64,000 bases of DNA from Spirochaetota bacterium (lineage in GTDB: Bacteria > Spirochaetota > Spirochaetia > Treponematales > UBA12059). The stretch is from positions 2,578-66,577 of the forward strand of contig JAPLSN010000041.1 of NCBI GenBank assembly GCA_026398615.1. The letters are read 5' to 3'. Below the pieces are notes generated by a model that saw only the letters and a program-made list of their open reading frames with translations, had not been told where the DNA came from and ran no database searches. The position numbers and the translations under genes are program-made. Below are positions 10,916-45,443 of this stretch, piece by piece; positions within the stretch are counted from its first letter, which is position 1; the number at the start of each line of letters is the position of its first letter.

Positions 10916-11015
10916 GGTTTCTCCTTCCGTTCGATGCGCCGTTCGACGCTTCCGCGTTCCCGTCTTTTATAGGCGAATCCTGCGCCAGCGGGCAAGCCGC
11001 CGGAAGCGCTCCATT

Positions 11016-11049
11016 TAAAAAGGCGCGCCGCCCTCTCGGACGGCGCGCC
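11016..11049 (-). terminator. Terminator of the putative OMP/FecR-OMP operon
   Basis: GGCGCGCCG...CGGCGCGCC stem with an A-run at 11016-11020 that reads as a U-tract on the minus strand. Confidence 0.75.
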
Positions 11050-11070
11050 AGTCTGCCTATGCTTCGTCGG

Positions 11071-13266: not shown

Positions 13267-13283
13267 ACGTCCTCCTTTCTCCG

Positions 13284-14651
13284 TCAAAACTGCACGGTGC
13301 TCTGGATGCTCGAGCTTACGTCGAAGCCATTGTCGGCCTCGGGATTGTACTTCAAATTATAGACGAGCGAGATGACTGCCGCCCCGGTGTGGTAATTGAT
13401 CGCCGCGCTGATGACGGCGTCCTCCGGCGTGAGGAGGTCCCGGAAGAAACCCTTGTCACTGCCGAGGAAGTACTTGTCGTATGCCGCGTCGAAGGAGAAA
13501 CCGCCGATGATCCCCTGCGCGAGGTTCGCGACGCCGCGCACGTGCGGGTACTCGGCCGAGTTTGCCGATTTCACCGATGGAATGACCTGGAACGGCCCGT
13601 CCAGCGCAACGCCGAAACTGACCGCGTCCTTGAGGACCGAAAGTCCGAGGTTGGCGGCCCAGCCGGCGGTCGCTCCGCCTGAAACCGATTCCTGCATGGC
13701 GTCATATCTGATGGAACGGAACAGATCGTAGTTGGCGTCGAAGTAATCGGGAATGAACCCGGCGCCGAGCACGCGGACCTGGGCTCCGTAGGTGATCACG
13801 CCGACGAGCCGGCCAGCCGCGCCCGCCATCCAGCCCCAGCGGTTCTTGGGTTCCATCGCGAAATCGGTGAAAAGCCCGAGAGGGAAGAGATCCCCGCCCA
13901 TGAGGGGCAGGAATACGTCGAGACCGTATACCATGACGGGGTCCGCGTCGTTCGCGGGGTCCGTGTCGTTGTAGAGGTCGGGTTTGGTGTCCGCCACGAG
14001 GGTCAGGCCGGTCTGGAGGTTCTTGATGACGGGCAGCTCGGACCCGTAGAGCGGGCGGACGAAGAATCGGCCGCCGATGACGTCGAGCTGGGCCAGATTG
14101 CCCGTGAGCACGTCAAGGCCGAGGTACGGAAAGTCGAAGAGCGCTCCGTCCACGCCGGCTTGAAGGCCGAAAAATCGCAGGGCGGGCAGGTATCGCGTGT
14201 TCGCATAGCCCCCGACGATGAATCCGTCCCCTAGCGTGAGGTTGTCGATGGAACCGAGCTTGACGTACAGGGGATCGCCCTGCTTGCCGTACCTGATGTA
14301 CATGATCTTGGCCATGTAAAGGTCGAAGACGGAATAGCCGGAGCCTTCGTAATCGGGAAGCCAGTCCCCGGGATATAACTCGATGGCGGTATCCGGATCG
14401 GGATAGAACTTGAACCTGACGGAAAGGTCGAATCCGATGCCGAATTTGCCGAACGAGATGTCAGGCTGGAATCCAAGCTTGTTCCATGTTTCCACGGCTC
14501 CGTTCACGGGGATCGCGTCGGCTCCGAGGCTGACGGCAGCCTGGAAGCCGAAACCTGCGTCAGCGGCCGGGTCGGATACCTCGCCTTCCGAGAACCCGGA
14601 AAATACGCATACTGCCGCTACAAAGATGAAAATCGTCATTCGACGAATCAT
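13284..14651 (-). CDS. Putative outer-membrane beta-barrel protein, paralogue of the C-terminal part of the downstream gene
   Basis: ATG 14651 with GGAGG RBS; signal peptide; ends in STVQF; segment similarity to 11071-13266 is visible by eye. Confidence 0.75.
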   Translation of the reverse strand: MIRRMTIFIFVAAVCVFSGFSEGEVSDPAADAGFGFQAAVSLGADAIPVNGAVETWNKLGFQPDISFGKFGIGFDLSVRFKFYPDPDTAIELYPGDWLPDYEGSGYSVFDLYMAKIMYIRYGKQGDPLYVKLGSIDNLTLGDGFIVGGYANTRYLPALRFFGLQAGVDGALFDFPYLGLDVLTGNLAQLDVIGGRFFVRPLYGSELPVIKNLQTGLTLVADTKPDLYNDTDPANDADPVMVYGLDVFLPLMGGDLFPLGLFTDFAMEPKNRWGWMAGAAGRLVGVITYGAQVRVLGAGFIPDYFDANYDLFRSIRYDAMQESVSGGATAGWAANLGLSVLKDAVSFGVALDGPFQVIPSVKSANSAEYPHVRGVANLAQGIIGGFSFDAAYDKYFLGSDKGFFRDLLTPEDAVISAAINYHTGAAVISLVYNLKYNPEADNGFDVSSSIQSTVQF

Positions 14652-14930
14652 GTGTCCTCCTTCGCGCCGATTCCCGCAAGAACAGGTACGGCGACGGAAC
14701 CATCCTGTCGACGCTTCGGGTTCCGTCCCGAAAAACGCCGAAAGCCGCGCGACGGAGGGGCTTGCCCGTTTCCACCATACGCCTTCGGTCGATGCGTTTT
14801 TCGTATACAATCTACTGTAACACAAGGTACCGAGGAAAAAAATGAAAAACAACGGGCTGATCCGGAATCGGCGGCCGGTTGGATCCTCGCGATGCTGCGC
14901 GGGAAGTCGCCGTTTACGTCGGCAGGATGT

Positions 14931-15353
14931 TCAGGAAATCGTTTTCCGGGCGGCGACGAACTCGGCGAGTGTCCTGCCTGAGGCATATTCACGGAACATG
15001 GCATCCATGTCCATCCATGCCCTTCCCGCGGCGCAGCTGCCTGGATCCGCGCACCGGATGCCGTTTTCGCAGACACAGGGAAGAAATCCGATCGGATCTC
15101 CAGCGCCTTCCAGGACTTCGAGCAGGGTGATCTCGGACGCGGCCCGCGAAAGCCTGAAACCACCACCCGCGCCCCTCAATGAGTCGACGATTCCAGCCTG
15201 CCGCATCTTGTGGAATACCTGTTCTAGGAAATCCGGCGACAATCGTTGGTTGCCGGCAAGGGTCCTGATGCTCGTGAGGGGGCTTGAATCGCCGTAATCC
15301 GCAAGTGCGATGAGCGCCTTGAGAGCATACCGTTCGCGGCTCGTGATTCTCAT
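14931..15353 (-). CDS. Rrf2-family transcriptional regulator (IscR-like)
   Basis: MRITSRERYALKAL, FLEQVFHKMRQAGIVDSLRGAGGGFRLSR; Cys cluster C-x-C-x5-C-x5-C. Confidence 0.93.
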   Translation of the reverse strand: MRITSRERYALKALIALADYGDSSPLTSIRTLAGNQRLSPDFLEQVFHKMRQAGIVDSLRGAGGGFRLSRAASEITLLEVLEGAGDPIGFLPCVCENGIRCADPGSCAAGRAWMDMDAMFREYASGRTLAEFVAARKTIS

Positions 15354-15731
15354 GAGATTCCCCGCCCTTCAGCTGATTCGTTTTCATGGTACAATGGAAT
15401 GCCGATGACCGCAAGGAACTTCCCCCGGAGTTGGACTTTGGGAAAGCCGAATTGCCGCCGCATTTCACGGGTATTCCTTACCTGCGAACCATAATGCATG
15501 GCACTCGTTGCGGTTTAATGCTGGTTTCGGAAAATTATCTATTATGGTAAATATCTCTCATGGTCGGGGATCCAAGCAGAATCCCCGACGACGCTTCGAC
15601 GGCGACAGCTTCTTAATAGTGGGACTTCTCGTCGCGAACCCGCGGTTCGCTTCGCCACATCGTTTGCATATCCTCCGGCACCGCGCTACGCTTGAATCCG
15701 GGAAACACGACAACGAGGGAGAGGCACGGCC

Positions 15732-16259
15732 TTGGAAAACATGAAGGAAAAGATCAAGCAGATCGAAGCCGTGCGCAAGATCATCACGTTCCGTTTCATG
15801 ACCGACGGAGAGATCGTCGACTTGCTGAACCTCGCGGAACTCGTCCGGTATTCGGAAGGCGAGGTTCTCATCGAGGAAGGCGAGATCAGTCCGTTCTTCT
15901 TCGGCATCATCGAAGGGACTTTCGGTGTCACCGTCAAGGAAACCGATGGCAAGCAGGTGTACGTCAACTCCCTCGGACCGGGCGACGTGTTCGGGGAAGC
16001 CGGGATATTCATGAAGGTCAGGAGAACCGCGACGATCACCGCCCTCGATACCGTTCTCGTGATCCGCATCCATCGAACCGACTTGATCAATTTCATCAAG
16101 AAGCACGCCGAAGCGGGAAACAAGATCCTGCTCGTTATCATCTTCAGCCTGCTGCGCAAGCTTCGCATGGTGAACCAGGAGCTGGCGTTCGAAAGGAAGA
16201 GCGACATAGCCCAGGACGAGATCGACGCGATGATCGAAACGCTGTTCAGCGAACCCTGA
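15732..16259 (+). CDS. Cyclic-nucleotide-binding (Crp/cNMP) domain protein without an obvious HTH
   Basis: GEVLIEEGE, GPGDVFGE and RTATITA phosphate-binding cassette. Start is TTG 15732 or ATG 15741. Confidence 0.88.
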   Translation: MENMKEKIKQIEAVRKIITFRFMTDGEIVDLLNLAELVRYSEGEVLIEEGEISPFFFGIIEGTFGVTVKETDGKQVYVNSLGPGDVFGEAGIFMKVRRTATITALDTVLVIRIHRTDLINFIKKHAEAGNKILLVIIFSLLRKLRMVNQELAFERKSDIAQDEIDAMIETLFSEP

Positions 16260-20717: not shown

Positions 20718-20766
20718 GAAAGCCTCCCTCCGGCGGACGGGAACATCGTCGCATGATTCCCCGGCA

Positions 20767-21966
20767 TCAGGAACCGGGACGCCACGCGGATTCCGCCAGT
20801 TCCGCCAGGCAATCACGCAGGAATACGTTGAGAAGATCAAGCCCTTCCGACGTCGGTGCCGGACCCCGTTCCCCTGCGATGACGAGATCGGGATGCCTGT
20901 CGATCGACCGCCCGAACAGGGTTTCTATCCCGACGCCGAAACGCCTGTGAAATTCGGGAGCGTCGACTCCGCGGAAGGTCCGCATACCCATCATGAGGAA
21001 CTCGAAGGCGGCATCCCGCGGCGCCACGATCTCTTCCGACGAGCTTCCCACTGGATCGGCGATGTATTCGTCGAGGTCGCGCGCGCAGTTCGAGCGCGCC
21101 ACCGATCCGTCGGGCAGGGACACGCTTCCCGAAGCCGAAGGTCCGACGCCGATCCAGGAACCGCTTTCCCAGTAGCGCTGATTGTGACGGGATTCCTGTC
21201 CGGGGAACGCATAATTGGAGACTTCGTACCGGCGGAGGCCGGCGGCGCCCATGATCCGCTCGGCCTCGCAGCGTGCGGCCCGGTCGGAATCCTCGCCGGG
21301 AAGCCGCGTGCGACCGGCGCGCACCGCCCCGGCCAGCGGTGTAGCAGCTTCGAGCGTCAGGTCGTAGAGCGAGACATGGCCCGCGCCCGCATCGATGGCG
21401 CGGACGAGCCCGCCGGTCAAGCTGGCCGGGGTTTGACCGGGCAGGCCACAGATGAAATCCGCGGAGAACCTTCCGCTCCATTCAGCCGCGATCAAGTCCA
21501 GCGCCCGAAGGGCATCGGCCTTCGTCGTCGATGCGCGCCCGGCAGCCCGAAGCACGTCGTCGTCCATGTCCTGGAGACCGAGACTCACGCGGTTCACTCC
21601 CGCGTCCCGCAAAACGCGGAGCTTTCCCGCGTCCAGGCTCTCGGGATTGGCTTCGCAGCTCCACTCGCCGACCGGTGCAGGTCCCGACAGGTTGGCGAGG
21701 CCTTCGATGAGGCGGACGAATGCGCCCATCGGCAGCGCCGTCGGCGTCCCGCCTCCCACGTAGATCGTGTCGAAGCCGGAAGCGCCGGACCTGTCGGCCA
21801 GGATTCCCGTGTGCGCGAGCACGGCAGCGACATAGCCGTCGGCCAGCGCCGAATCCAGGCAGGTTCCGACAGGAAGCGAATAAAAATCGCAATAAGCGCA
21901 TTTCGCGCGGCAAAAGGGAACATGCACGTACAGCGACAATGGCCCCGCCGACGCGCGGGATTTCAC
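20767..21966 (-). CDS. hemW: Radical SAM heme chaperone HemW (HemN-like)
   Basis: LYVHVPFCRAKCAYCDF, TIYVGGGTP, EANPES, YEVSNYA, HNQRYW. Confidence 0.93.
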   Translation of the reverse strand: MKSRASAGPLSLYVHVPFCRAKCAYCDFYSLPVGTCLDSALADGYVAAVLAHTGILADRSGASGFDTIYVGGGTPTALPMGAFVRLIEGLANLSGPAPVGEWSCEANPESLDAGKLRVLRDAGVNRVSLGLQDMDDDVLRAAGRASTTKADALRALDLIAAEWSGRFSADFICGLPGQTPASLTGGLVRAIDAGAGHVSLYDLTLEAATPLAGAVRAGRTRLPGEDSDRAARCEAERIMGAAGLRRYEVSNYAFPGQESRHNQRYWESGSWIGVGPSASGSVSLPDGSVARSNCARDLDEYIADPVGSSSEEIVAPRDAAFEFLMMGMRTFRGVDAPEFHRRFGVGIETLFGRSIDRHPDLVIAGERGPAPTSEGLDLLNVFLRDCLAELAESAWRPGS

Positions 21967-23903: not shown

Positions 23904-25451
23904 ATGGCTGAAGAAAAGCACATCACGCAGGAAGACATAGACAGAGCCGAGGTTCACCTTCGTCCTCTCGCAGGCATCCCGCCCGGTACGTGGGTCATGG
24001 TGGTTTTCGGGTTCCTCGTCGCTGCGATCCTGTTCGCCCTCATCGTCCTGCCCGGCCTCGCGGGGTATGGCACGCTCGCGTCGTTTTCGAGCGACCCTTC
24101 TGGTGCGGCAGTGGCCGTGGACGGAAGTTATCGGGCTTCGACGCCCTGCGAGATATTCCTTCCGGCGGGAAACCACGGACTCGAAGTGGCATACCCGCGC
24201 TTCACCTCGAAAAAATGGACGGAAAACCACGGGGGAAGGCTGCTGTTCAGCTTGTTCTTGCCGAAACGGAGCTCCGTGGAAGCCGAACTCGTTCTCGCCG
24301 ATCCCTCCGGGCTGCTCGCCGATGCCCAGGCCGAGTTCGCCTCGTGGAGCCTTGTCGGAAAACCATCACCTTCCTACCAGTTCCCCATGGTCCTGTCCGA
24401 CGCGGCTGCCGCGCGTTTCGCCGATCCCGCGATCCAGGCGCCGCCAACCCGCGAACGCAGGATGTTCCTGTATGCGGCGGCGCGCAACGCCCTGTACCCC
24501 GAATCCGCGCGCGATGCGCTGCGCGCGGGTGCGCTCCTCTATTCATGGGGAGCCTCCGCTTCTCCCGCGGGAGCGCTTGCCGTCGCCGATGGATTATTAG
24601 ATGCCGTTGGAGTTGAACCCGGTGTGCTTTCGGTGCTCGAACGGTCCCTGCCCGCGGACAAGGCTGCCGAACTGCGCGCCATGCCGCTCTACTCCCGTAC
24701 TCCCAGGCTCTCCCCAAACGACGCGATCCGATCCGGCCCCGTTTTCCCGGCGCTCGCGATCGGCGGCGTCCGCTTCATCGCGGTTCCCGCCGGAGAGCAT
24801 ACCTTCGCTCCGGATGGAGCCCTCACCGCGACGCTGTCCGTCGACGGCTTTGGCATTGCCGCGACCGAAACGACCCGGGACCAGTACTCCCGCTTCATCA
24901 AGGCCAATCCCGCCTGGGCTCCGGTCGGCGCTGACAGCCTCCGCAAGGCCGGGCTCGTCGACAAAGGGTACCTTGCCGGATGGAACGAACCCGGCGCGGC
25001 CGGATCGCTGCCCGTGACCGGTGTCTCGCGGGCCGCCGCCCTTGCCTATTGCGCGTGGCTTTCGGGATCGGCGCCTGCGGGATACCGCGTCGCGCTTCCG
25101 TCGGAAATCCAGTGGGAATACGCTGCCGTGAAGGGTTCGGCGAGCGCCGGCGTCTTTGCTGCATCCGGCTCGAAGGGACCTTCTCCCGCCGGATCGGCAG
25201 GCGTCGACAAGCTCGGTATCGCCGACCTGCCCGGCAACGTCTGGGAATGGTGCGACGACCCGTTCACGCACTTCCCCACCGTCGGCGCCGAAGCCGCGGG
25301 AGCTTTCCCCGCTGCCGAATTCGTGGTTCGAGGCGGCTCCTGGGCCAATCCGAAGGGCAGCGTCGGCGTCCGCGACCGCGGATCCTTCCCCGCAGGTTTC
25401 TGTTCCCCATTCCTCGGTTTCAGGGCGGTCCTCGTCCACGCGGAACCCTGA
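23904..25451 (+). CDS. Membrane-anchored PEGA-like + FGE-sulfatase (SUMF1/C-type lectin-like) domain protein
   Basis: TM helix; ETTRDQY, PVTGVS...A.AYCAWL, LPSEIQWEYAA, GNVWEWC, RGGSW, LGFR. Lacks the FGE catalytic Cys pair. Confidence 0.85.
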   Translation: MAEEKHITQEDIDRAEVHLRPLAGIPPGTWVMVVFGFLVAAILFALIVLPGLAGYGTLASFSSDPSGAAVAVDGSYRASTPCEIFLPAGNHGLEVAYPRFTSKKWTENHGGRLLFSLFLPKRSSVEAELVLADPSGLLADAQAEFASWSLVGKPSPSYQFPMVLSDAAAARFADPAIQAPPTRERRMFLYAAARNALYPESARDALRAGALLYSWGASASPAGALAVADGLLDAVGVEPGVLSVLERSLPADKAAELRAMPLYSRTPRLSPNDAIRSGPVFPALAIGGVRFIAVPAGEHTFAPDGALTATLSVDGFGIAATETTRDQYSRFIKANPAWAPVGADSLRKAGLVDKGYLAGWNEPGAAGSLPVTGVSRAAALAYCAWLSGSAPAGYRVALPSEIQWEYAAVKGSASAGVFAASGSKGPSPAGSAGVDKLGIADLPGNVWEWCDDPFTHFPTVGAEAAGAFPAAEFVVRGGSWANPKGSVGVRDRGSFPAGFCSPFLGFRAVLVHAEP

Positions 25452-25456
25452 AAGCC

Positions 25457-25921
25457 ATGGAGAACGGCGGCGTCAAGATCATCGCCCTGAACCGCAAGGC
25501 GCGGTTCGACTACGAGATCGTCGAAACCTTCGAATGCGGCATGGAATTATCGGGCTCGGAGGTCAAATCCTTCCGGCTCGGGAAGATCAGTTTCCCCGAT
25601 GCCTTCGCCGTGATCGAAAACGGGGAGATATGGCTCCGCCAGCTCCACGTCGCCGAGTACGTCTATTCGTCCATCTTCAACCACGACCCCGACCGACCCA
25701 AACGCCTGCTCCTCCACCGCCACGAGATCAAGCGGCTCAAGCGCAAGGTCGACGAAAAAGGATTCACCCTCGTCGCGCTCGCATTCTACTTCAAGAACCG
25801 CAGGGTCAAGGTGGAACTGGGGCTGGCGAAGGGCAAGAAGCTTTTTGACTAGCGCGCGAGCATCAAGGACCGCGAAGTCAAGCGCGATCTCCGCCGGGAG
25901 ATCCGCGAGAGGAACGGCTGA
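25457..25921 (+). pseudogene. smpB: SsrA-binding protein SmpB interrupted by an in-frame TAG at 25850-25852 (nonsense allele, readthrough or assembly error)
   Basis: LNRKARFDY, GSEVKS, KRLLLHRHEI, VKVELGLAKGKKLFD-[TAG]-RASIKDREVKRDLRREIRERNG-TGA. The full frame is 154 codons and its stop abuts the rsmD start. Confidence 0.85.
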
Positions 25922-25922
25922 C

Positions 25923-26477
25923 ATGCGCATCACGGGAGGGGAATTGCGGGGGCGCATCGTCGATTGCCCGAAAGGCGATCTTGAAATCCGACCCGCGATG
26001 GACCGCATGCGCGAATCGGTGTTCGCGGTTCTTGGCGACCTGAATGGCCGTTCCTTCCTCGACCTCTTTTCCGGATCGGGCGTCCTTGCGCTCGAAGCCG
26101 CCAGTAGGGGCGCGTCTCCCGTCGTCTGCGTCGAAAAAGACCGGGGCAAATTCCCGCTGCTTCTCAGGAACGTGGCAATCGCTCCGGAACGGATCGAATG
26201 CAAGTGCCTTGCCTCCGAGCTCTTCATCAAGCGAACGAAAAGCAAATTCGACCTCATCTTCTGCGACCCGCCCTTCCCCTACCGGTTCAGGCTGTCGCTC
26301 CTCGAGTCCATCTCGGACCATGGCGTCTGCTCTCCGGGCGGGCTCGTGCTCATCCACCATCCCGGGGAGGACGGGCTCCCCGATGCCGCCGGGTCCCTCG
26401 TGGCGACCGACCGCCGCGTCTTCGGGAGATCCATCGTCGCATTCTACAGGATGTCGCCGTTGACAGGGGTCGGGTGA
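25923..26477 (+). CDS. rsmD: 16S rRNA m2G966 methyltransferase
   Basis: MRITGGELRGR, IRPAMDRMRESVF, FLDLFSGSG..ALEAASRGA, DPPF. Confidence 0.95.
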   Translation: MRITGGELRGRIVDCPKGDLEIRPAMDRMRESVFAVLGDLNGRSFLDLFSGSGVLALEAASRGASPVVCVEKDRGKFPLLLRNVAIAPERIECKCLASELFIKRTKSKFDLIFCDPPFPYRFRLSLLESISDHGVCSPGGLVLIHHPGEDGLPDAAGSLVATDRRVFGRSIVAFYRMSPLTGVG

Positions 26478-26615
26478 GTTCAGTACCGATGACAGGGCTT
26501 TCATCGTTTTTCTGTCAGTATTTCGGATTGGAACTGTCAGAAAAGCTTGTCTTTTTCATTGATTATTTGGCCGAACTCTAATACATTTCAGACAGATCAT
26601 AAACGGGATCATTAT

Positions 26616-26954
26616 ATGGATAAAAGCGTTTTCGAAAAGTTCGAAGCCGAAGGGTTCATCAAGGAAACCGATGTTCCGAACCCTGAGCTGAACCCGGAGC
26701 AGAAGTCCAGGCTGAATCGCCGTGGGAACGAGCTGTTCAATACCGGCCAGGTGGACGTCGCGCGCCGTATCTTCCAGACAACAGGATATTCCGATGGCCT
26801 CATCCGCATCGGCGACCGGTACATGGCGGAGAACCGCCATGTAGACGCGCTGAAGATGTACACATTGGCGCACGAAACGCAGAAAAGCGAGGCGCTGGCC
26901 ATGAAGATCGCTTCGGTAATACAAAACCTGATCGTCGAAAAGGAACCACAATGA
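26616..26954 (+). CDS. Conserved hypothetical protein (TPR-like, 112 aa)
   Basis: LNRRGNELFNTG...A.RIFQTTGYSDGLIRIGD; overlaps the next start codon (ATGA). Confidence 0.8.
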   Translation: MDKSVFEKFEAEGFIKETDVPNPELNPEQKSRLNRRGNELFNTGQVDVARRIFQTTGYSDGLIRIGDRYMAENRHVDALKMYTLAHETQKSEALAMKIASVIQNLIVEKEPQ

Positions 26955-28096
26955 GCGACCTACCCAACGCGGGTTTTCCGCAGCAAGACCATGAACACGA
27001 CCCGACCGGCGGGCAGAACCCCGAGATCGTCGAGATCGCGGATCTCTCCAAGCGGGGCTACCAGTACCTCAAGGAAAACAGGATGGTCGACGCGGAAACC
27101 TGTTTCGCGAAGATCATCGAACGCGATGGCGAGAACAACTATGCCCTCGTCGGCCTCGGCGACGCCGCGAGAAAACGCGGCTCGTTCCGCGACGCGGTGG
27201 ATTATTACAAGAAGTGCCTGGTCTACCATCCGGGGAACAACTACGCGTTGTTCGGCCTCGCCGACTGCTACAAGGCGCTCAACCAGTACCAGAAGGCGAT
27301 CGAGATCTGGGAGCAGTACCTCCTGCACGACAACAAGAACATCACCGTGCTCACACGTGTGGCCGACGCGTATCGAAAGGTACGGGACTTCCGCAAGTCC
27401 AAGGCGATCTACCTTCGCGTGCTCGAGATGGAAGGCGACAACCCGTATGCGCTGATAGGACTCGGCCATCTCCACTACGATTTCAAGGAGTACAAGGATG
27501 CCCTCATGTACTGGCAGAAGATGGTGGAGATGCAGGGCGATTCGGTGGATATCCGCGTCCTGACCTCCATCGGCAACTGCTACCGCAAGCTCAAGCAGTT
27601 CGAACAGGGCGTCCCGCACTTTGAAAAGGCCCTGGAGAAGGAACCGAACAATTTTTACGCGCTCTTCGGCCTTGCCGACTGCTACCGGGGTATCGGCCAG
27701 CAGGAGAAGTCGCTCAACTACTGGAACAGGATCATCGAGCAGGATCCGCGGAACAAGGTTATCCTGACCCGCGCCGGCGACGCATACCGCCACCTGGGTG
27801 ACTTCAAGCGGGCCTCGGAATACTACGAGCGGGCGCTCAATATCGAATTCGACGTCTATGCCGTCCTCGGCATGGCCGTGATAGCCCGGCTCCAGGGCAA
27901 GCACGAGGACGCCATCCAGTCGCTCAGGCGCCTCATCCAGAACGACCCCAAGAACTACCGCCTGGCGATAGAGCTGTCGGAGTGCTACCTGGCATCGGGA
28001 GACAAGCAGCGCGCGCTCGAAGCCCTCGTGGAATACCAGCGTCTCGGCATCAGGAACGTCTACATCCAGGACATGATCGCCAGAATCCAGAAATGA
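26951..28096 (+). CDS. TPR protein
   Basis: Regular 34-aa repeats (NNYALVGLGD, NNYALFGLAD, NPYALIGLGH...). Confidence 0.93.
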   Translation: MSDLPNAGFPQQDHEHDPTGGQNPEIVEIADLSKRGYQYLKENRMVDAETCFAKIIERDGENNYALVGLGDAARKRGSFRDAVDYYKKCLVYHPGNNYALFGLADCYKALNQYQKAIEIWEQYLLHDNKNITVLTRVADAYRKVRDFRKSKAIYLRVLEMEGDNPYALIGLGHLHYDFKEYKDALMYWQKMVEMQGDSVDIRVLTSIGNCYRKLKQFEQGVPHFEKALEKEPNNFYALFGLADCYRGIGQQEKSLNYWNRIIEQDPRNKVILTRAGDAYRHLGDFKRASEYYERALNIEFDVYAVLGMAVIARLQGKHEDAIQSLRRLIQNDPKNYRLAIELSECYLASGDKQRALEALVEYQRLGIRNVYIQDMIARIQK

Positions 28097-29121
28097 GCGG
28101 GATGTCGGCACGCCTTACCGGCATGCTGCCGCCGGACATCGTATCGGCGTGCGGATTCGACCGCCCGTTCAGGGGCTTGCAGGTCTTCAGGTGGATCGCC
28201 CGCGGCGCGAAGGATTTCGCGTCCATGTCGGACCTTCCCGCGTTGGAACGCGAACGGCTTGGTGCGGATTTCGGCGGTCTCTACGGCACGTCGACGGAAG
28301 CGGGGCTCGAATCGGCCGACGGCACCGTGAAGCTCCGCGTGCGATGCGCTGACGGAGCAGTAGTGGAATGCGTGCGTCTCCTCAACGCCGGAGGCAGGAT
28401 GACCGCCTGCCTGTCCTCGCAGGTCGGATGCCCGATGGCCTGCGTTTTTTGCAGGACCGGAACGCTCGGGTTCCGCAGGAACCTCGAGGCGGACGAGATG
28501 GTCGAACAGGTACTCCACCTCGCAGCGTCCCGGGGCAGGCCTTCCAATATCGTCTTCATGGGGATGGGTGAACCTCTCCTGAACCTCCGGGCGGTCAGGG
28601 CCGCGATCGCCGTCCTGACGCATCCGGAAGGCCTCGGTTACTCGCCGAGGAAGATCACGCTCTCCACCTGCGGCCTGGCTCCCGCCATCAGGGAGCTTGC
28701 CGATTCAGGCCCCCATGTGCGCCTCGCCGTATCCCTGACCGTCGCCGACGACGAACTGAGGTCCGAGATCATGCCGGTCAACAGGTCGCACGGCCTCGCC
28801 GAGCTCAAGGATGCACTGCTGCACTACCAGTCCGTCACGGGCGACCGCATCACGCTCGAAACGGCGCTCATGAAAGGGGTCAACGTCTCGTCGGCGGACG
28901 CGCGGAAACTCGCCGAATGGATCGCGCCGCTCAAGGTCCAGGTGAATCTCATCCCCTGGAACCCGGTGGAGGGCATACGCTTTCAGGAACCGTCCCGCCA
29001 GGAAGTCGAAGCTTTCGAACGCGAGCTGGAAGTTTTGGGCGTCCCCGTCACCAGGCGGACGCGGCGCGGCCGGGGCGTGTCGGGAGCCTGCGGCCAGCTC
29101 GGAGAAACGCTGCAGCGCTGA
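28093..29121 (+). CDS. rlmN: Dual-specificity RNA methyltransferase RlmN
   Basis: CLSSQVGCPMACVFC, NIVFMGMGEPL, RKITLST, VNLIPWN, ACGQL. Confidence 0.96.
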   Translation: MSGMSARLTGMLPPDIVSACGFDRPFRGLQVFRWIARGAKDFASMSDLPALERERLGADFGGLYGTSTEAGLESADGTVKLRVRCADGAVVECVRLLNAGGRMTACLSSQVGCPMACVFCRTGTLGFRRNLEADEMVEQVLHLAASRGRPSNIVFMGMGEPLLNLRAVRAAIAVLTHPEGLGYSPRKITLSTCGLAPAIRELADSGPHVRLAVSLTVADDELRSEIMPVNRSHGLAELKDALLHYQSVTGDRITLETALMKGVNVSSADARKLAEWIAPLKVQVNLIPWNPVEGIRFQEPSRQEVEAFERELEVLGVPVTRRTRRGRGVSGACGQLGETLQR

Positions 29122-29172
29122 AGCGCCACGGCGTTTCTCCGGAGCTCCGCTGACCCGCAGGAAAAACGGCCT

Positions 29173-30852
29173 TCACCTCACGAGGGAAGATCGCACGATT
29201 CCGACGGTCCGCTCGCACAGCAACCTGGCTTCGCCCGCCATCGCCTCCGCCCGGGCGGCGCAATCGGTTTTGAAGGCGGCATCGACGATCGGTCCCAGGT
29301 TGATGAGGACATTGAGGATCGCGCCTTCCACGCCGGCCCTCGCCATGAGCGCGCCGACCCCCGCGTCGCTCGCGGAGTTGGCGTTGCCCTTCTCGGCGGC
29401 GACGAGGCATGCCGAGATGGCTTCCAGGCAGATCCGCGCCGTTTCGAGCGGCACCGCGGCGGCCTTCTTGTAGCCTTCCTGCATCGCGACGTCGCGGGCT
29501 TCCCTTTGCTCCGGCGAGGATTTCGGGAGCTTCATGGCCTCCATGAGCCCATTGAACGCGTTGGTATCCTCGTCCACGGCGCGGACGAGCTCTTCCTTGA
29601 TGCGCTGGCTCCGGACCGCGAGTTCCGACATCGAAGGCCATGCGGCCTCGTACCCCTTTTTCCCGACCGTCAGGTTGGCTACCATGGCCGCAAGCGCTGC
29701 GCCGAGGCTGCCTGCCAGGGCCGCGACCGAACCGCCGCCGGGCGCGGGGGAATCTCTCGACACCTCGTCCACGAATCCGGCAACCTTCATGGAAACGAGG
29801 GGCGCGCTTTCCCGCGCGGCGTACTCGACGATCTTCCGTTCCGGATCGAAGTCGTTCACCGAATCTAGGCCCATCGAGCGCACTGCGACCTCGATCAGCT
29901 CGCGTTCGCTTCCCCCCTCGCTCTTGCCCATCTTCTTGAGGAAATGCCTTCCTGCATCCGCGAGCGGCTCGAGGGGCAGGAGCCCGACGATCTCGCTCCC
30001 CGTCACGACGAGGCCGAGCCTGTCGGCTTCCCGCCTTACGGTTTCCCAGACGACGTGGAGCGGCGTGGTCCGGTAGTCGATGAGGTTGATGGAGACTTGA
30101 GCGCAGCGGTAGGCGTCGATGTACCAGCCTATCGCCCTGACCTCGCTGAGGAGACCGGGCACCTTCACCGGATTCCCGCTTTCGTCCTTGACGACATTGC
30201 CCGAAACGTCCCTCGCGGACCGGCCGCCTTCGCGGATGGTGAGCGCGATGTCGTTGGCGAGCTTCCTGTCCCTGGTGTTCAGATTGACGTTGTACGCGAT
30301 GAGGAATTCGCGCGCTCCCACCACTGTAGCGCCCCAGCGGGGAATGAACGCGGAAGGCCCGTAGTCCGGTTCCCATTCCGGCTTGCCCATTTTGTCGGGA
30401 AGGGCTTCGTATTCTCCGGCGCGGATGTCGGCGAGGCTCGTCCGCCTCGGCGTACGTGCGGCCTTTTCGTAGAGGTAGACGGGGACTGCGAGTTCCCCGG
30501 CGATGCGCTCCGCGGCCTTCCTGGAAATCTCGACACATTCTTCCATCGTAACTCCGGAGACCGGTACGAAGGGGCAGACGTCCATCGCCCCCATGCGCGG
30601 ATGGGCACCGGTATGCAGGGTCATGTCGATAAGATCGAAGGCGGTCCTGGCTGACGCGACCGCGGCCTCGACCACCGATTCGGGATCGCCGACGAACGTG
30701 AACACGGTACGGTTCGTATCGGTTCCCGGGTCCACGTCGAGCAGTTTCACGCCGGTAATTCCGGAAATGGACCGGGCGATGGCATCTATGACGGTCTTGT
30801 TCCGGCCTTCCGAAAAATTGGGAACGCATTCGACGAGCTTGCGAACTGACAT
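29173..30852 (-). CDS. ftcD: Bifunctional glutamate formiminotransferase / formiminotetrahydrofolate cyclodeaminase
   Basis: LVECVPNFSEGR, HPRMGAMDVCPFVP, AQVSINL; C-terminal PAPGGGSVAA cyclodeaminase domain; GAGGAG RBS. Confidence 0.95.
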   Translation of the reverse strand: MSVRKLVECVPNFSEGRNKTVIDAIARSISGITGVKLLDVDPGTDTNRTVFTFVGDPESVVEAAVASARTAFDLIDMTLHTGAHPRMGAMDVCPFVPVSGVTMEECVEISRKAAERIAGELAVPVYLYEKAARTPRRTSLADIRAGEYEALPDKMGKPEWEPDYGPSAFIPRWGATVVGAREFLIAYNVNLNTRDRKLANDIALTIREGGRSARDVSGNVVKDESGNPVKVPGLLSEVRAIGWYIDAYRCAQVSINLIDYRTTPLHVVWETVRREADRLGLVVTGSEIVGLLPLEPLADAGRHFLKKMGKSEGGSERELIEVAVRSMGLDSVNDFDPERKIVEYAARESAPLVSMKVAGFVDEVSRDSPAPGGGSVAALAGSLGAALAAMVANLTVGKKGYEAAWPSMSELAVRSQRIKEELVRAVDEDTNAFNGLMEAMKLPKSSPEQREARDVAMQEGYKKAAAVPLETARICLEAISACLVAAEKGNANSASDAGVGALMARAGVEGAILNVLINLGPIVDAAFKTDCAARAEAMAGEARLLCERTVGIVRSSLVR

Positions 30853-30928
30853 GGTTTCTCCTCGGATACTGCAAATGGCAGGATCGCAGTATACCACGAA
30901 TCACCCGTCCACGGAGCGAAAAACAGCT

Positions 30929-32557
30929 TCAGCCGCGCTCGACCCCCGAAAGGACGCGGGCGCAGGCCGCCACCGCGAAGGGCAGGCCGGCGCCGAGGGC
31001 AAGGTGCAGCCACAGCCAGGCGGGCAGTCCTTCGATAACCGTGACGACCTTGCCGTACGCCCAGAAATCGAGCCCCGCGGCGAGCGAGACGAGGATGATG
31101 ACGAAGGCGGCAGGCGGTATCGCAGGCGACGGGAAGGATCCGTCCTGGCGCCAGGCGCCCTTCGCGCGGAACAGCCGTGGTACCGCCGCCAGGCCGAAAG
31201 CCGCGGCCTGGGCGGTGGTGTTGAAGAATACCGGGAGCGGTCCGGGAACGAGGAGGAGCCCCGAAGCCTCCAGGACGACGAGGAGCATCCCGGTCGCGAA
31301 GGCTGCGACAGCCGGCGTGATTCCCGTCCGTTTCGCGAAAAGCGCCGCGAGAAAGACCACGCCGATGGCCGCGTAGCCCGGGAAGCTCGTCGAAGTGAGC
31401 AAGTCGAGGATCGTTGCCGGAGGACGTAGCGATACGAGCCAGGCCACAGCCACGACGGCCACGGCGGCGAACCTGACCGGTTTCGCGGAGCCTTCCCGGC
31501 CGGGAAGCCAGTCCTTCACCAGCATGGACGATACGGAGAGGATCTGGCTGTCCAGCGTCGACATCAGCGCCGCGAGCGCCGCAAGTCCGAAGACCGCGGC
31601 CATGCCGCCGCCTGCCGCCTGAGCCGACATCCGCATGAAAATGCCTTCGCTGGACGCGCGATCGATGCCAGGGAAGGTGGCTGCGCCGGCCACGCCGATG
31701 CCTACGGTGCAGAAGAACAGGCCCGTCGTGACGATCGGATAGCAGATCGCCGTGAACGCGATCGAGCGATCGCTCCGGGCCCCGATGAAGCGTTGGAAGA
31801 GCTGGGGGAACATGGGATCGGCGAGAAACCACAGGAGCACGTAGCCCGCGTAAGTCCCGAAACTCACGCCCGTCCCCGCACCGGAACGCGAAAGATGACC
31901 GGGCGAAAGGACGGAAAGCCGTTCAGCTGCGGCAGCGAGGCCGCCGTTGGCGGAAACTGCGACGAATGCCGCCGCCGAGCCTCCGACGAGAATCGCCAGC
32001 TGGAGAACATCCGTCCTGACCACGGAACGCATGCCCCCCGCGAGGATGTAGCCGAGGGTGACGGAAGCGACGGCGGCGCAAGCGACTTCGTACGGGACTC
32101 CCGTCGCCGCCGCGATCATGCGTCCCCCGGCGATGATCTGGGCGGCGATGTACGGAAGGGTGCAGGCGAGGAGGGCTGCCGATACCGCCTTCGCGAACCC
32201 GGGCGATCCGTAGCGGTCCCTGATGAGGTCGGACTGGGTCATCCATCCCCGTTCGCGTGCCAGTCTCCGCACCGGCATGCCGACGAGGAGGAAGGCGAAA
32301 GCGACGAAGCCGGTGCCGAACGCCATGACGGGAAGGTAGCTCCACCCGAGGCGATACCCGGCGCCGGAAAGCCCGAATACCGTGAAGGCGGAAAAATTGG
32401 TGGCGGCCATGGTCGCCAGGAGCATGAAGGGCGACAGGTTCCTTCCGCCAAGAACGAAGGATTCGGCGTCGCCTGGAATCCGGCGGCCGAAAAGTCCGAC
32501 GAGGAGGTTGGAGGCCAGGAACAGGAAAACAGCGGCTATGCCGACGGTTCCGGACAC
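30929..32557 (-). CDS. Sodium:solute symporter (SSS family) with a C-terminal small membrane-domain extension
   Basis: FVLGGRNL, ATNFSAFTVFGLSG, GGMRSVVRTD.LQ, AALAALMSTLDSQ. GTG start at 32557 inferred. Confidence 0.88.
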   Translation of the reverse strand: MSGTVGIAAVFLFLASNLLVGLFGRRIPGDAESFVLGGRNLSPFMLLATMAATNFSAFTVFGLSGAGYRLGWSYLPVMAFGTGFVAFAFLLVGMPVRRLARERGWMTQSDLIRDRYGSPGFAKAVSAALLACTLPYIAAQIIAGGRMIAAATGVPYEVACAAVASVTLGYILAGGMRSVVRTDVLQLAILVGGSAAAFVAVSANGGLAAAAERLSVLSPGHLSRSGAGTGVSFGTYAGYVLLWFLADPMFPQLFQRFIGARSDRSIAFTAICYPIVTTGLFFCTVGIGVAGAATFPGIDRASSEGIFMRMSAQAAGGGMAAVFGLAALAALMSTLDSQILSVSSMLVKDWLPGREGSAKPVRFAAVAVVAVAWLVSLRPPATILDLLTSTSFPGYAAIGVVFLAALFAKRTGITPAVAAFATGMLLVVLEASGLLLVPGPLPVFFNTTAQAAAFGLAAVPRLFRAKGAWRQDGSFPSPAIPPAAFVIILVSLAAGLDFWAYGKVVTVIEGLPAWLWLHLALGAGLPFAVAACARVLSGVERG

Positions 32558-32697
32558 GGGAATTCCTTCCCGGGGCCGGGATGGCCGAGAAGGCCTGGCA
32601 TAACCCCGATTGCGAACAGGCATGATCGGGCGGCTTTCGGGCCGCCACGGCAGGCTGCGGGAAAACTTCCCTTTCACCGGCAACCCGCCGGGAAAGC

Positions 32698-32726
32698 ATC
32701 CTAGCCTGACATGCGTTCACGATCAA
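32698..32726 (-). promoter_or_regulatory. sigma70-type promoter for the SSS gene, followed by a structured leader of about 135 nt
   Basis: TTGATC-17 nt-TAGGAT on the minus strand. Confidence 0.55.
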
Positions 32727-33057
32727 GCCTTTCTCCGCACTCGGCTTGACCGCGTCGAGGAGCGGCCGCTATCCTGGACATTCGGTCCGTACACGGATCT
32801 CGCGGAACAGTCAGATAAAAACACTATCCGTCCGGAATGCGCACGCCGCCGATCGCCAGGCGATACTCGCATATGTGCTCCATTCCGTCATCGCAGGTGA
32901 TCCTCCGCCCGTGGATTGCGCGATCGAGTCGCTGGTCCCGCCGTGAGATCCGGCTCCCGCCGCTTTCGACGCGGCGGGATTCGGACGCAGGGAAGACGGG
33001 CCGGACTTCTTCATCTACGAGCTTCCGCTGGAATCGATCGGCCGTTTCCGTGCGTGA
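32709..33057 (+). pseudogene. Probable decayed gene remnant (GNAT-like C-terminus?)
   Basis: Protein-like, GC3-rich frames join across an A5 run (32817-32821) and across an in-frame TGA (32944-32946). No convincing start codon. Confidence 0.4.
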
Positions 33058-33154
33058 CGGCCGCTGACGGCATGCCCGGCGCTGTGCCGCCCTCGGCAAG
33101 CGCGCCCTTCGCCCACTTCACGCGATCACGGCCATTCACTATAATGCCGTCATC

Positions 33155-34921
33155 ATGAACGATGTCAAAAAGGAACGGAACTTCCGCCTCGCTTCGTACG
33201 TCCTCGAGCACAAGGGAGCTTTCGCCGTGGGCTTCGCGTCCATGACGCTCAATGCCGTCGCTCAACTCGCAGGCCCGCTCATCCTGATGGCCGTCGTCGA
33301 CCGCGCCGTTCCGGCTCGCGATACCGGCATGATGGTCGCTTACGGACTCGCCTACGTCGCCCTGGTGATCGCCATGGGCGCGCTCACCTGGGTCCAGACC
33401 GTGGTCGTCGCCAGGATGGGGCTGTCAGTCGTCACGCGCATCAAGCTCGAACTCTTCGACCACCTGCTGCGCCTCCCCGTCGCCTTCTTCGACGGGCATC
33501 CGGTCGGCGAGCTCATGGCGCGCGTCGAAAGCGATTCGGAAAAGGTGAAAGAACTCTTCTCGCGGACGATAGTGACGCTCCTGTCCAACGCATTCTTCCT
33601 CGTCGGCATGATCGTGTTCTTCTTCCTGAAATCCCCGCGCGTGGCACTGTTCGTTGCCCTGCCCATCCCTTTCCTCGTCGCGGCCATCATTTTCGTGTTC
33701 GACCGGCTCCGCCATTTCTTCGAAAAAGCCAGGAAGCTGTATGCCGGAATCTGTGCGTCGATCACCGAGTACATCCAGGGAATCGAGGTGATCCGTGTCT
33801 TCGGGCGGAAAGCCTGGGCGTTGGCCAAGGTGGAAAACCCGAGCCGGGGGAAGCGTGACGCGGAGGTGTCCGGCGAGCTGATCGCATATTCCTTCGAGGG
33901 ATTCCTCGGATTCCTCCTCGGCCCCGTGTTCATCGTGCTCGTCGTCAAGGTGACAGCACCGGGTATCTTCGCCGGGACGCTCACCGTGGGCGCCCTCCTT
34001 GTCTTCATCGAGTACGGTCGCCGCCTCTTCGAGCCCCTGTTCGCGCTCGGCGAGAACGTGCGGCAGATCCAGCAGGCACGCGTCGCGCTCGGCCGAATTT
34101 TCGGCCTTTTCGATCTGGCCCGGGAGCACCCTGGCTCCGGCATTCCCGCATGCTTCGAACGCGAGATCGAGTTCCGCAGAGTGGGCTTCGAGTACAAGGA
34201 AGGCGAACCGGTGCTCGCGGACATCTCGTTCACCGTCGGGAAGGGGCAGACCGTCGCCCTGGTCGGCCCGTCGGGATCGGGCAAGACGACGACGGTCGGG
34301 CTCCTCTGCGCTTTCTACCGCCCGACCCACGGGAACATCCTCGTCGACGGTGTTCCGCTCGCCGATATCGACCTGGTTTCGTGGCGCAAGAAGATCGGCC
34401 TCGTGCTCCAGGACATCTACCTGTTTCCCGGCGACGTGCTCGAAAACGTCCGCGTCTACGACGACTCCGTTCCCGAGACCGCGGTCGTGGACGCGCTTTC
34501 CGTCGCCCACGCGAGGGATTTCGTGGACCGTCTGCCCGAGGGCATCCGCACGGACCTCCACGAGCGGGGCTCCAACCTCTCGCTCGGGGAAAAGCAACTG
34601 CTCTCCTTCGCGCGGGCGGTGGCCTTCAATCCGGAAATCGTGGTGCTGGACGAAGCCACGTCCAGCGTCGACGTGGCCACCGAAAAACGCATCAAGGAAA
34701 GCATGGCGACGCTCCTCGAAGGGCGGACCGCCCTCATCGTCGCGCACCGCCTGTCCTCGGCGCTCGAGGCCGACTCGATCATCTTCTTCAGGGAGGGGAG
34801 GATCGTGGCGAGGGGAACGCACGAAGAACTGTTCTCGGGCTTCCCCGAGTACGCGGAACTCGTTCGGCTGCAGTTCCCCGAATTCAAGCCGGCCGAAACG
34901 ACGGGCGAGGAGGCGTCATGA
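33155..34921 (+). CDS. ABC exporter subunit (TMD+NBD, MsbA/YheH-like)
   Basis: GPSGSGKTT, signature LSLGEKQ, ILVLDEAT-type Walker B (VVLDEATS), AHR. Confidence 0.93.
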   Translation: MNDVKKERNFRLASYVLEHKGAFAVGFASMTLNAVAQLAGPLILMAVVDRAVPARDTGMMVAYGLAYVALVIAMGALTWVQTVVVARMGLSVVTRIKLELFDHLLRLPVAFFDGHPVGELMARVESDSEKVKELFSRTIVTLLSNAFFLVGMIVFFFLKSPRVALFVALPIPFLVAAIIFVFDRLRHFFEKARKLYAGICASITEYIQGIEVIRVFGRKAWALAKVENPSRGKRDAEVSGELIAYSFEGFLGFLLGPVFIVLVVKVTAPGIFAGTLTVGALLVFIEYGRRLFEPLFALGENVRQIQQARVALGRIFGLFDLAREHPGSGIPACFEREIEFRRVGFEYKEGEPVLADISFTVGKGQTVALVGPSGSGKTTTVGLLCAFYRPTHGNILVDGVPLADIDLVSWRKKIGLVLQDIYLFPGDVLENVRVYDDSVPETAVVDALSVAHARDFVDRLPEGIRTDLHERGSNLSLGEKQLLSFARAVAFNPEIVVLDEATSSVDVATEKRIKESMATLLEGRTALIVAHRLSSALEADSIIFFREGRIVARGTHEELFSGFPEYAELVRLQFPEFKPAETTGEEAS

Positions 34922-36699
34922 AGAACGCCCCCCCCGCGAAGGTCCCGCACGGTGCATGGATATGGGCCATCTGGAAGGAGCGCCTCCCGCTGATCGGCCT
35001 GCTCTGCTTCCTGACCCTGCTTTCGAGCGCCGTCGCGGTATCGTACCCCTACCTCGCGAAGCTCCTCTTCGATTCCATCCAGGCTGCGCTCGAATCAGGC
35101 GATGCATCGGCCGGCGGCGCCGTCGTGGACCGCTTCGCGCTCCTTTTCCTCGCGGTCGGCGCGGCCCAGATCGTCGCGGGATTCTTCCCGGCGATCCGCG
35201 GGGCGACCAACTCATTTCTCGAGCATATCATCAGGATGAAATACTTCCGCTCGGTCCTGGACAAGGACTCGCGGTTCTTCGCCACGTTCCGCTCCGGCGA
35301 CGTCGTGACGAGGCTTACCGACGACATCTACGATTTCCCGAAGCTGGCCTGGTTTCTCTGCTCGGGAATTTTCCGCGCCGTCGAATCCGCGAGCAAGATC
35401 GGGTTCTGCATGGCGGCCATGTTCCTGCTGAACCCGAAGCTGACCCTCTACTCCCTGATCCCGGTCCCGCTCATGGTCGCGGTCTTCTGGGTGACCCAGG
35501 ACAGGATCTACGACGCGTTCCAGAGAAACCAGGAAGCCATCAGTTCCATCAACGACCGCCTGGAAATGAGCTTTTCCGGCGTGAGGATCATCAAGGCATA
35601 CGCGGCCGAAGGCAAGTACCGCCGCTTTTTCGAGGCGGATCTCGCCAGGAGGAAGTCGACCGAGATGGCGGCGGTGAAACTCGAGACGGTGCTCACGCTC
35701 ATCGACCAGTACGTGGACTACTTCGCCCAGATCGGCGTCATCTTCGCGGGCGGGCTCATGGCCATCCGGGGCGAGATCACGGTGGGTACCTTCTACGCGT
35801 TCTACAACTACCTGTCCATGCTCCTGTTCCCCATGCTCGACATCCCGCAGCTCTTCCTTTCGGGCAAGCGCGCCTTCGTGAACATCGACCGGCTCGAACA
35901 GCTGCGCGAATTTCCCATCGCGTCCGCAGCTTCGGACGGCGCGCTCGCCCCTGGCGATTTCTCGTCCATCGAGTTCAAAAACGTTTCATTCAGGTACGAG
36001 GGCAGAAAGGAGAACGCCCTCGACAACGTGTCGTTCCGTGTCTCGAAGGGTGAACGGCTCTGCCTCATCGGCCCCGTGGGATCGGGAAAATCGACGGTCG
36101 TCAAGCTGCTCTGCGCCCTCCACGCGCCGGATTCCGGCGCGATCGAGGTGGACGGGATCGATCTCTCCCGCATCAATGCCGACCGTTTCCGCGGGATGAC
36201 GGGCTACGTTCCGCAGGAACCCCTGCTCTTCACCGGCACAATCCGCGAAAACGTGGCATTCGGTTCGCTGGCCCCCGACTGCGCCGTCACGGACGAAGCC
36301 TTCGCGGATGCCATAGATACCGCCCGCATGGGACCGGAAATGGCTTCATTCGCCGATGGGGAGCTCACCCTGCTCGGTCAGCGGGGTTCATCGGTTTCGG
36401 GGGGTCAGAAACAGCGGCTCGCCGTGGCCCGGGCCCTCGTCCGCGCCCCGAAGCTCCTGCTTCTCGACGACATCACCGCGAGCCTCGACGCGTCGAACGA
36501 GGAGCACCTCATGTCCCGGCTGGACGAGGCGTCGGTGGATACCGCCTGCATCGTCGTATCGCACCGTCTCTCGACGCTCCGCTACGTGGACAAGGTTCTC
36601 TTCCTCGACGGCGGGCGGGTCGCCGCGTACGGGACCCACGAGGAGAACCTCGCGGTTCCCGCCTACGCGGAGTTCATGGCGCATCACCTGAGCCGATGA
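34918..36699 (+). CDS. ABC exporter partner subunit (TMD+NBD, YheI-like, degenerate Walker B)
   Basis: ATG 34918 overlaps the previous stop; GPVGSGKST, VSGGQKQR, LLLDDIT. Confidence 0.93.
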   Translation: MKNAPPAKVPHGAWIWAIWKERLPLIGLLCFLTLLSSAVAVSYPYLAKLLFDSIQAALESGDASAGGAVVDRFALLFLAVGAAQIVAGFFPAIRGATNSFLEHIIRMKYFRSVLDKDSRFFATFRSGDVVTRLTDDIYDFPKLAWFLCSGIFRAVESASKIGFCMAAMFLLNPKLTLYSLIPVPLMVAVFWVTQDRIYDAFQRNQEAISSINDRLEMSFSGVRIIKAYAAEGKYRRFFEADLARRKSTEMAAVKLETVLTLIDQYVDYFAQIGVIFAGGLMAIRGEITVGTFYAFYNYLSMLLFPMLDIPQLFLSGKRAFVNIDRLEQLREFPIASAASDGALAPGDFSSIEFKNVSFRYEGRKENALDNVSFRVSKGERLCLIGPVGSGKSTVVKLLCALHAPDSGAIEVDGIDLSRINADRFRGMTGYVPQEPLLFTGTIRENVAFGSLAPDCAVTDEAFADAIDTARMGPEMASFADGELTLLGQRGSSVSGGQKQRLAVARALVRAPKLLLLDDITASLDASNEEHLMSRLDEASVDTACIVVSHRLSTLRYVDKVLFLDGGRVAAYGTHEENLAVPAYAEFMAHHLSR

Positions 36700-36773
36700 A
36701 AAAACCCGACGGTGATCGAGCCCGTCGGATCCGTTGCGAGTCAGCCGTTCAAGCCGCTTTCGCCGGCGACCTG

Positions 36774-37817
36774 TCAGCGCTTTTCAAGCTTGGGATCGAT
36801 GAAATACCCGTTGATGAAAACGGGGATGGAAACGCCCGTGATCATGGCGCCCGCGGCGAAGAAATTGAGTCCGAGGCCCGGATTGTCCGTGTAGTAGAGG
36901 AAGGCTCCGGTGCCCTGGAGGGCCATGCCCGTCGACGCCAGCAGGGTGCCGAGCAGGATCATGGTGTTCTTCTTCCGCATGGTCGTCATGACGATGGCGT
37001 ATTCCGAGAGATCGAGCGACGGCGCGGACGATGCCTGCGCCTCCGCGGCCGGGACGACGGGGACCGCGGGAAGCTCCGCGGCTTCCGTTTTCTCCGACAG
37101 GCCGGATTCCCCGGTTTCCGCGCCGGACTTGAATTCCCTTTCCTGCCAGAACGCCTTTACATCTTCGGGAATGGAGGTCTTCGTGGCTTCCACCCGCGTT
37201 TCGACCTTTTCCACAGTGACCATCTCGCCCGCGGCAAGCATGTAGGTTTGCGGGACGGGTTCCAGCTTTTCGTCCGGCCGGGCGGAGGGTGGCGTCACGA
37301 AGGTCGTCACTTCGACCACGCCGTCGAAACAGTACACCCTCGACAAAGGTTCGCCGGTAGCCGTCTTGGCGTTGCGCGCCGCGATCACGTCGTAGCCGAA
37401 GTCGGTGCCGCGGACCCCGGCGGCCGTGGTCGTCGACCTGACCGCGAACTCTTCCTTGCCGCTCAGCTTGTCGACCTTGGCGCGTACGCGTCCGTAGATG
37501 AGCTGGAACGAGTTCTCGCCACCGGGAACGAGCTTCTGGATGACGAAGGTCGTGTTCTCAGAGAGCTTGAGCATGTCCTTCCGCGGGTAGATCCTGATCT
37601 CGAGGAAGGTGCCCTTTCCCGTCTGTATCTGATCGCCCTGGAAGAGCCTGAAGCCCAGCGGATCGCCCGTCGATACCGCGAGGCCCTTGCGAACGACACT
37701 CAGGTCATCGCCATCGATGTACTCGATCTCCGCGTACGCCTGTGGCGCCTGCCCATGGGCGGTGCCGCATACGACGAATGCCGCGAGGACCAGCCCCGCA
37801 AGAATATTCCGTTTCAT
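36774..37817 (-). CDS. FecR-domain exported protein with a C-terminal hydrophobic hairpin
   Basis: Signal peptide; GDQIQTGKGT.LEI, FQLIYGRVRA, AAGVRGTDFG; two C-terminal hydrophobic segments. Confidence 0.85.
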   Translation of the reverse strand: MKRNILAGLVLAAFVVCGTAHGQAPQAYAEIEYIDGDDLSVVRKGLAVSTGDPLGFRLFQGDQIQTGKGTFLEIRIYPRKDMLKLSENTTFVIQKLVPGGENSFQLIYGRVRAKVDKLSGKEEFAVRSTTTAAGVRGTDFGYDVIAARNAKTATGEPLSRVYCFDGVVEVTTFVTPPSARPDEKLEPVPQTYMLAAGEMVTVEKVETRVEATKTSIPEDVKAFWQEREFKSGAETGESGLSEKTEAAELPAVPVVPAAEAQASSAPSLDLSEYAIVMTTMRKKNTMILLGTLLASTGMALQGTGAFLYYTDNPGLGLNFFAAGAMITGVSIPVFINGYFIDPKLEKR

Positions 37818-37898
37818 GGATACCAATTCTACCGTACATGAGGCCGCTTATCAACGCGGCATTGAAAACCGCCCGATCTACGGGGTATAGTTCGACCG

Positions 37899-40215: not shown

Positions 40216-40284
40216 ACGGGGGGTGAATCGAGCTGCGCGATGACGGTGGGGGGAGAACATCCTTCCGTGTGCGCGGGCGTCGTA

Positions 40285-45439: not shown

Positions 45440-45443
45440 CGCC

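Follow-up and report, generated by a model that had tools for sequence, protein, structure and literature searches.

An in-frame TAG in smpB of a sediment spirochaete: an error in the consensus or a rare defective allele rather than a programmed signal

The smpB gene in a metagenome-assembled genome (MAG) of a sediment spirochaete carries an in-frame TAG at codon 132, and this stop is either an error in the consensus or a defective allele that is rare; it is not programmed. The T that creates it, at position 25850 of the window (the whole 64,000-nt stretch of DNA that was analysed), is seen in no public assembly except this MAG, whereas A is found there in two; an intact AAG allele is present in the same population, in a gene that is otherwise identical. 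Since two assemblies, both from sister samples, read the Lys codon there, the TAG is no stable property of the organism. We give slightly better than an even chance to the view that the T is an artefact introduced into the consensus where coverage is poor and that the organism's smpB is ordinary and intact. Of the options offered by the original prediction, error and nonsense allele both stand and together account for nearly all of the probability, whereas leaky readthrough is not supported.

The smpB locus and its relatives

The source assembly comprises 3.38 Mb in 43 contigs with 63% GC, at an estimated completeness of ~99%, and its named homologues come from MAGs of Spirochaetales and Treponemataceae. 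With the TAG read as Lys, the frame in question (Table 1) matches the SmpB models NF003843 (201.7 bits, cut-off 130) and TIGR00086 (193.2 bits, cut-off 119.1) end to end, and the beta-barrel core is recognized by PF01668 (190.5 bits, positions 1-142 of 143, '1 TAG inside'). The latter match is the sole one in a search of the whole genome, which therefore has one smpB copy; the possibility of a second copy is rejected on the same ground.

Table 1. Coordinates of the features discussed and of the segments compared between the MAG and the runs X1 and X2
Feature	Position	Strand	Remarks
smpB (SsrA-binding protein)	25457-25921	+	154 codons with codon 132 read as Lys; ATG at 25457
In-frame TAG, codon 132 of smpB	25850-25852	+	where the D-K-R tail motif has its Lys (K138 in E. 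coli)
smpB C-terminal tail	25853-25918	+	22 codons, basic, intact; severed from the protein by the TAG
rsmD-like 16S rRNA methyltransferase	25923-26477	+	TIGR00095
MAG vs X1/X2	1-15999		no differences (16 kb)
MAG vs X1/X2	24.5-34 kb		cluster of strain SNPs
MAG vs X1/X2	36000-55999		two differing sites (20 kb)
ArfB (alternative ribosome-rescue peptidyl-tRNA hydrolase)	C17:8790-9224 (locus L028 1450-1884)		outside the window
tmRNA (ssrA)	contig C5, c[20746-21101]		tag ANNNGTLALAA*; ARAGORN
tRNA-Sec	contig C22:8637-8731		anticodon TCA; outside the window
'tRNA-???' calls	C1:130631-130730 and C1:190580-190669 (complement)		called by ARAGORN elsewhere in the genome

The codons around the stop are AAG AAG CTT TTT GAC TAG CGC GCG AGC, and the tail motif reads K125-G-K-K-L-F-D-[stop]-R133, with F at the position of E. 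coli H136. The TAG is followed by 22 open codons, RASIKDREVKRDLRREIRERNG, and then by a TGA at 25919-25921, with a spacer of 1 nt between this TGA and the ATG of the rsmD-like gene. The KGKK...(H/Y/F)DKR motif and the tail are, accordingly, encoded; the TAG breaks the K of DKR in the MAG, and the motif is continuous in a contig of the sister run SRR20698649. At base 25850 the MAG has T where A is found elsewhere, a single A>T change against every comparator. In all these respects the locus is as the original prediction described it: an amber codon at position 132, an intact and basic tail downstream, a TGA one nucleotide ahead of the rsmD start, and a single A>T step from AAG to TAG, on which the sister-run contig and the relatives agree.

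The rsmD-like gene is matched by TIGR00095 with an E-value of 7e-30 and 104.1 bits, just below the model cut-off of 117.5, and the order smpB-rsmD is common to most relatives, as seen at the ends of the aligned loci. An AGGA lies ~10 nt upstream of the rsmD ATG, within the smpB tail; the tail itself contains no internal start codon.

No internal stop is found in smpB of any of the 40 relatives with a match, nor among the best 150 matches listed in a phylum-wide scan that found smpB in 389 of 401 genomes. No gaps arise when the tail is aligned to those of 19 relatives, all of which have Lys at the column of the TAG (AAG in 14, AAA in 5); the nearest of them, which belongs to the same genus and is 85% identical, has GAC AAG CGG at the site. 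The residue expected at codon 132 from the sequence alone, namely Lys, is thus the one found in 19/19 relatives, and the comparison of smpB proposed together with that expectation shows the frame open in 40/40. Judging by this alignment, selection on the Lys is strictly purifying.

Base 25850 in the sister samples

The stretch occurs in freshwater-sediment metagenomes, in four runs of one study: SRR20698648 (X1), the best holder, with 0.97 of the sampled words; SRR20698649 (X2); and two further runs (X3 and X4). RNA runs holding the stretch were searched for, and none was found. For the comparison of the MAG with the runs, which covered 56 kb of the window, Logan contigs served as the basis (graphs of k=31, each k-mer counted at least 2 times); how many T-bearing reads there are, and of what quality, is accordingly deduced from contigs.

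In X2, a 4782-nt contig (~10x) spans 25300-26300 and differs from the MAG there at a single position, 25850, where T>A restores AAG (Lys); the SmpB encoded on this contig (L023; protein P0001) is intact at 154 aa and shows 100% identity to the translation in which the TAG is read as Lys. In X1, a 1238-nt contig (L022) ends with '...TTTTTGACAA', that is, '...GACAA' (in a longer quote, '...CTTTTTGACAA'), and so has A at 25850, and the contig that follows, L025, has 25851 as its first base and opens with AGCGCG, the assembly breaking exactly at codon 132. At the nearest true SNPs (26683, 27810, 28384 and 28764), X1 carries the MAG alleles. X3 and X4 contain the organism at 4-5x, without a contig across 25698-26040, and are thus silent on the allele at 25850; an apparent 'A' in X4 was rejected because it belongs to the smpB of a different organism, matched over 28 nt with 2 mismatches. 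An exact-protein look-up of the 131-aa truncated product returned only the X1 contig, in which the match is cut by the contig end, and no TAG-terminated match. Likewise, an exact pattern with W at the variable base gave 0 matches in JGI metagenome contigs and GTDB genome contigs, in scans that may not show the record of the window itself.

The geometry of the break in X1 is informative. At the usual two-allele site p, the contig on the left stops at p-1 and that on the right begins at p+1, with two 61-nt arms left over, as exemplified by 29353 in X2 and 32484 in X1. At 25850 in X1, the left contig continues into the A allele for two k-mers and stops, there are no arms, and the right contig starts from p+1. 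As read from the contigs, this pattern fits about two A reads, one of them ending at 25851, plus a single non-A read, and the local depth would be ~3 as compared to a mean of 6-9. X1 contigs end ~8 times per 20 kb, and the chance of a break at exactly 25850 is ~4e-4; given so low a value, we infer, from contigs and not from a read count, that the break must reflect heterogeneity of the reads at this base. The break at codon 132 thus points to thin, mixed coverage there. Repeat-driven mis-assembly at 25850 was considered as well and is rejected, all spanning 13- to 21-mers being unique in the genome.

Neither X1 nor X2 has the following states of the MAG: TG at 24623-4 and T at 25850, 32119 and 52287. 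The T at 32119 and the T at 52287 are both found in X3 and are real strain variants. Since X3 confirms these two states, the MAG consensus is a mosaic of co-occurring strains and holds real minority-strain alleles, and hence the T at 25850 could be one of them. Among the private states, 25850 alone coincides with a graph break, is confirmed nowhere and destroys a strictly conserved residue.

Decoding of TAG in the genome

The genome decodes TAG as a stop. RF1 is complete (NF001859, 513.4 bits) and RF2 is present, its long ORF starting at profile position 54. Genome-wide, TAG ends 312 of the 1694 long coding-like ORFs (~18%), with C as the next base in 104 cases, and within the window it ends 11 of 45. 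It marks the natural end of two proteins, a LivH-like permease and RNase Z, whose matches both run to the last profile position. On the strength of RF1, the 312 ORF ends and these two natural termini, a genome-wide reassignment of TAG is rejected, in keeping with the original prediction, which took TAG for an ordinary stop elsewhere in the window and held recoding to be unlikely. The amber-suppressor tRNA that it proposed to look for did not turn up: none of the 43 tRNAs called by ARAGORN has a CUA anticodon, in a MAG tRNA set that is incomplete (for example, without tRNA-Ala and tRNA-Ile). For the 136 nt surrounding and following the stop, the predicted fold is no better than that of shuffled sequences (z -1.28), and a readthrough-stimulating structure is rejected for this reason.

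The genome also has a tRNA-Sec, and the organism probably uses selenocysteine, which concerns UGA and not UAG. Two 90-100-nt 'tRNA-???' calls with the four-base anticodons cagg and cgag are probably false positives or intron-bearing genes, neither of which would read UAG.

The ribosome-rescue set and known systems

Besides smpB, the genome encodes tmRNA (Table 1) and a 144-aa ArfB, the latter matched by NF006718 with 121.6 bits and passing the equivalog cut-off of 100. Thus, of the genes that had been proposed for checking, ssrA and arfB are present, whereas a second smpB is not. From its gene content, the spirochaete possesses a back-up to tmRNA-SmpB in the form of ArfB. Taken as a whole, the smpB/tmRNA/ArfB set is standard and represents no new kind of system.

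In canonical SmpB, mutation of DKR or tail truncation prevents tagging, with binding of tmRNA and of the ribosome persisting, and K138 and R139 form salt bridges with 16S rRNA near G530 (PMC4151336). Both the alignment and this study agree with the earlier claim that SmpB carries a GKKx(F/Y/H)DKR motif and an essential tail. Since the tail is required for tagging, the product would be null for trans-translation if the stop is obeyed. Compared to the canonical protein of E. coli and Thermus (KGKK131, H136, DKR137-139), the gene described here has the full core, KGKK-L-F-D-[K]-R at 125-133, an aromatic F in place of H136, a stretch coding for a basic tail of 22 residues and a tmRNA partner; it departs from the canon in that the K138 equivalent is TAG in the MAG, the sister contig having AAG and being otherwise identical.

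Broken smpB genes have been recorded in complete genomes (PMC4131195, Table 3; Hudson, Lau & Williams 2014), and the authors, who suspected errors, were likewise unable to separate sequencing errors from real pseudogenes. The present case resembles the catalogued ones in that a single lesion, absent from related strains, interrupts an otherwise intact gene. However, those are mostly frameshifts in isolates or decayed genes of reduced endosymbionts, whereas here a single nonsense substitution is found in the MAG of a free-living sediment spirochaete, with the wild-type allele in the same population. The marks of a fixed pseudogene are missing from this gene: the lesion is single, the rest of the sequence is identical to the intact allele, and the tmRNA is intact. 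ArfB can make the loss of tmRNA-SmpB tolerable (PMC4131195), and the genome, having both ArfB and tmRNA-SmpB, shows the configuration that allows for such a loss; the difference is that the null allele is here a candidate, read from a MAG consensus only.

Competing explanations

The artefact reading, which we favour by the narrow preference stated above, rests on the AAG in an otherwise identical gene, the X1 break at the very codon and the decoding of TAG as a stop. On this reading, an assembler resolving a weakly supported bubble most likely took an erroneous read, or a very rare read variant, into the consensus, the T presumably stemming from one or very few reads; in the cells, SmpB with Lys132 and a full tail would work with the tmRNA encoded elsewhere in the genome, and the TAG would have no programmed role. 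With only 0 differences per 16 kb and 2 per 20 kb in the flanking segments, 25850 belongs to a very small set of MAG-private bases, which speaks for an artefact. By our own estimate, which is not the result of any tool, a read error is a priori far likelier than a true polymorphism at a site covered by ~3 reads, and selection against nonsense in a conserved motif lowers only the odds of the true polymorphism. Against this stands the general experience that Illumina substitution errors rarely reach the consensus at a mean depth of ~9x. Furthermore, the artefact reading needs a MAG derived at least partly from X1 reads, whereas the T at 32119 and the T at 52287 are real in X3, so that the MAG may stem from another sample or from a mixture. 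If the MAG was not derived from SRR20698648, the break in X1 becomes independent evidence of T-bearing molecules and favours a real allele. Such an allele, K132*, segregating and unfixed in a sub-lineage of the sediment population, is a serious contender, to which we assign a substantial but less than even likelihood. Its product of 131 aa would retain the beta-barrel and still bind tmRNA; having lost the tail from DKR on, it would be unable to support trans-translation, and the cells, as natural knock-outs of the main rescue pathway with a tail-less SmpB, would survive via the ArfB back-up. The expression of rsmD might drop somewhat, with ribosomes terminating 70 nt before its start; this effect would probably be limited because the AGGA could support independent initiation.

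Several observations are consistent with K132*, namely the non-A reads implied by the X1 break, the confirmation in X3 of the other two MAG alleles (32119 and 52287), the ArfB gene (NF006718, 121.6 bits) with which the loss is tolerable (PMC4131195), the separation of tagging, which ends upon tail loss or DKR mutation, from tmRNA binding, which is unaffected (PMC4151336), and the broken smpB genes on record in complete genomes (PMC4131195, Table 3). However, the T is in no assembled contig of any run and the two best-covered samples read A; selection on the residue is strict, to judge from Lys in 19/19 relatives; and, as the gene has no further lesion and neither the tail nor the tmRNA (tag ANNNGTLALAA) is damaged, any K132* allele would have to be very young. 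The third view, in which the cell makes a tuned amount of full-length SmpB through programmed or leaky UAG readthrough, or because TAG is recoded locally or throughout the genome, could draw on a tail that is open, basic and fully alignable after the stop, on the C that follows it and on the incomplete tRNA set (without tRNA-Ala and tRNA-Ile), which could hide an unassembled suppressor tRNA. We nevertheless regard it as highly improbable: the stop is absent from the otherwise identical gene in the same population and from 40/40 relatives, so that it shows neither conservation nor fixation, RF1 is complete (513 bits), no CUA anticodon occurs in the 43 tRNA calls, TAG ends 312/1694 long ORFs as well as the LivH-like and RNase Z genes at their natural ends, and the fold around and after the stop (z -1.28) is unremarkable. 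The smpB TAG bears neither on a change of the genetic code nor on programmed readthrough. If K132* is real, it provides a modest natural example of trans-translation being dispensable with ArfB; this dispensability has already been established experimentally, and broken smpB genes have already been catalogued. The case also carries a caution: when a ~9x MAG shows a single in-frame stop within a gene that is universally conserved, this stop needs to be checked against reads or sister assemblies before biology is built on it.

Strain variation around the locus

At the two X3-confirmed sites, 32119 and 52287, the T of the MAG changes L to M and P to S, respectively, in long ORFs, X1 and X2 having G and C. 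The contigs of both X1 and X2 end or turn noisy within 24546-24624, where at 24623-4 the MAG has TG and both runs have GC. This spot lies within a 515-aa ORF (23904-25451) with an EgtB/SenA-like C-terminal domain, and GC-rich imperfect inverted repeats are located just upstream, at 24480-24533; this spot and 25850 delimit the low-depth 1238-nt contig of X1. The strain SNPs that distinguish the sister samples cluster in 24500-34000 (~10 kb), at ~1 per 0.5-1 kb, the flanks 1-16000 and 36000-56000 being identical or nearly so across the runs, which suggests that 24500-34000 is a recombined or otherwise more diverse segment of the population.
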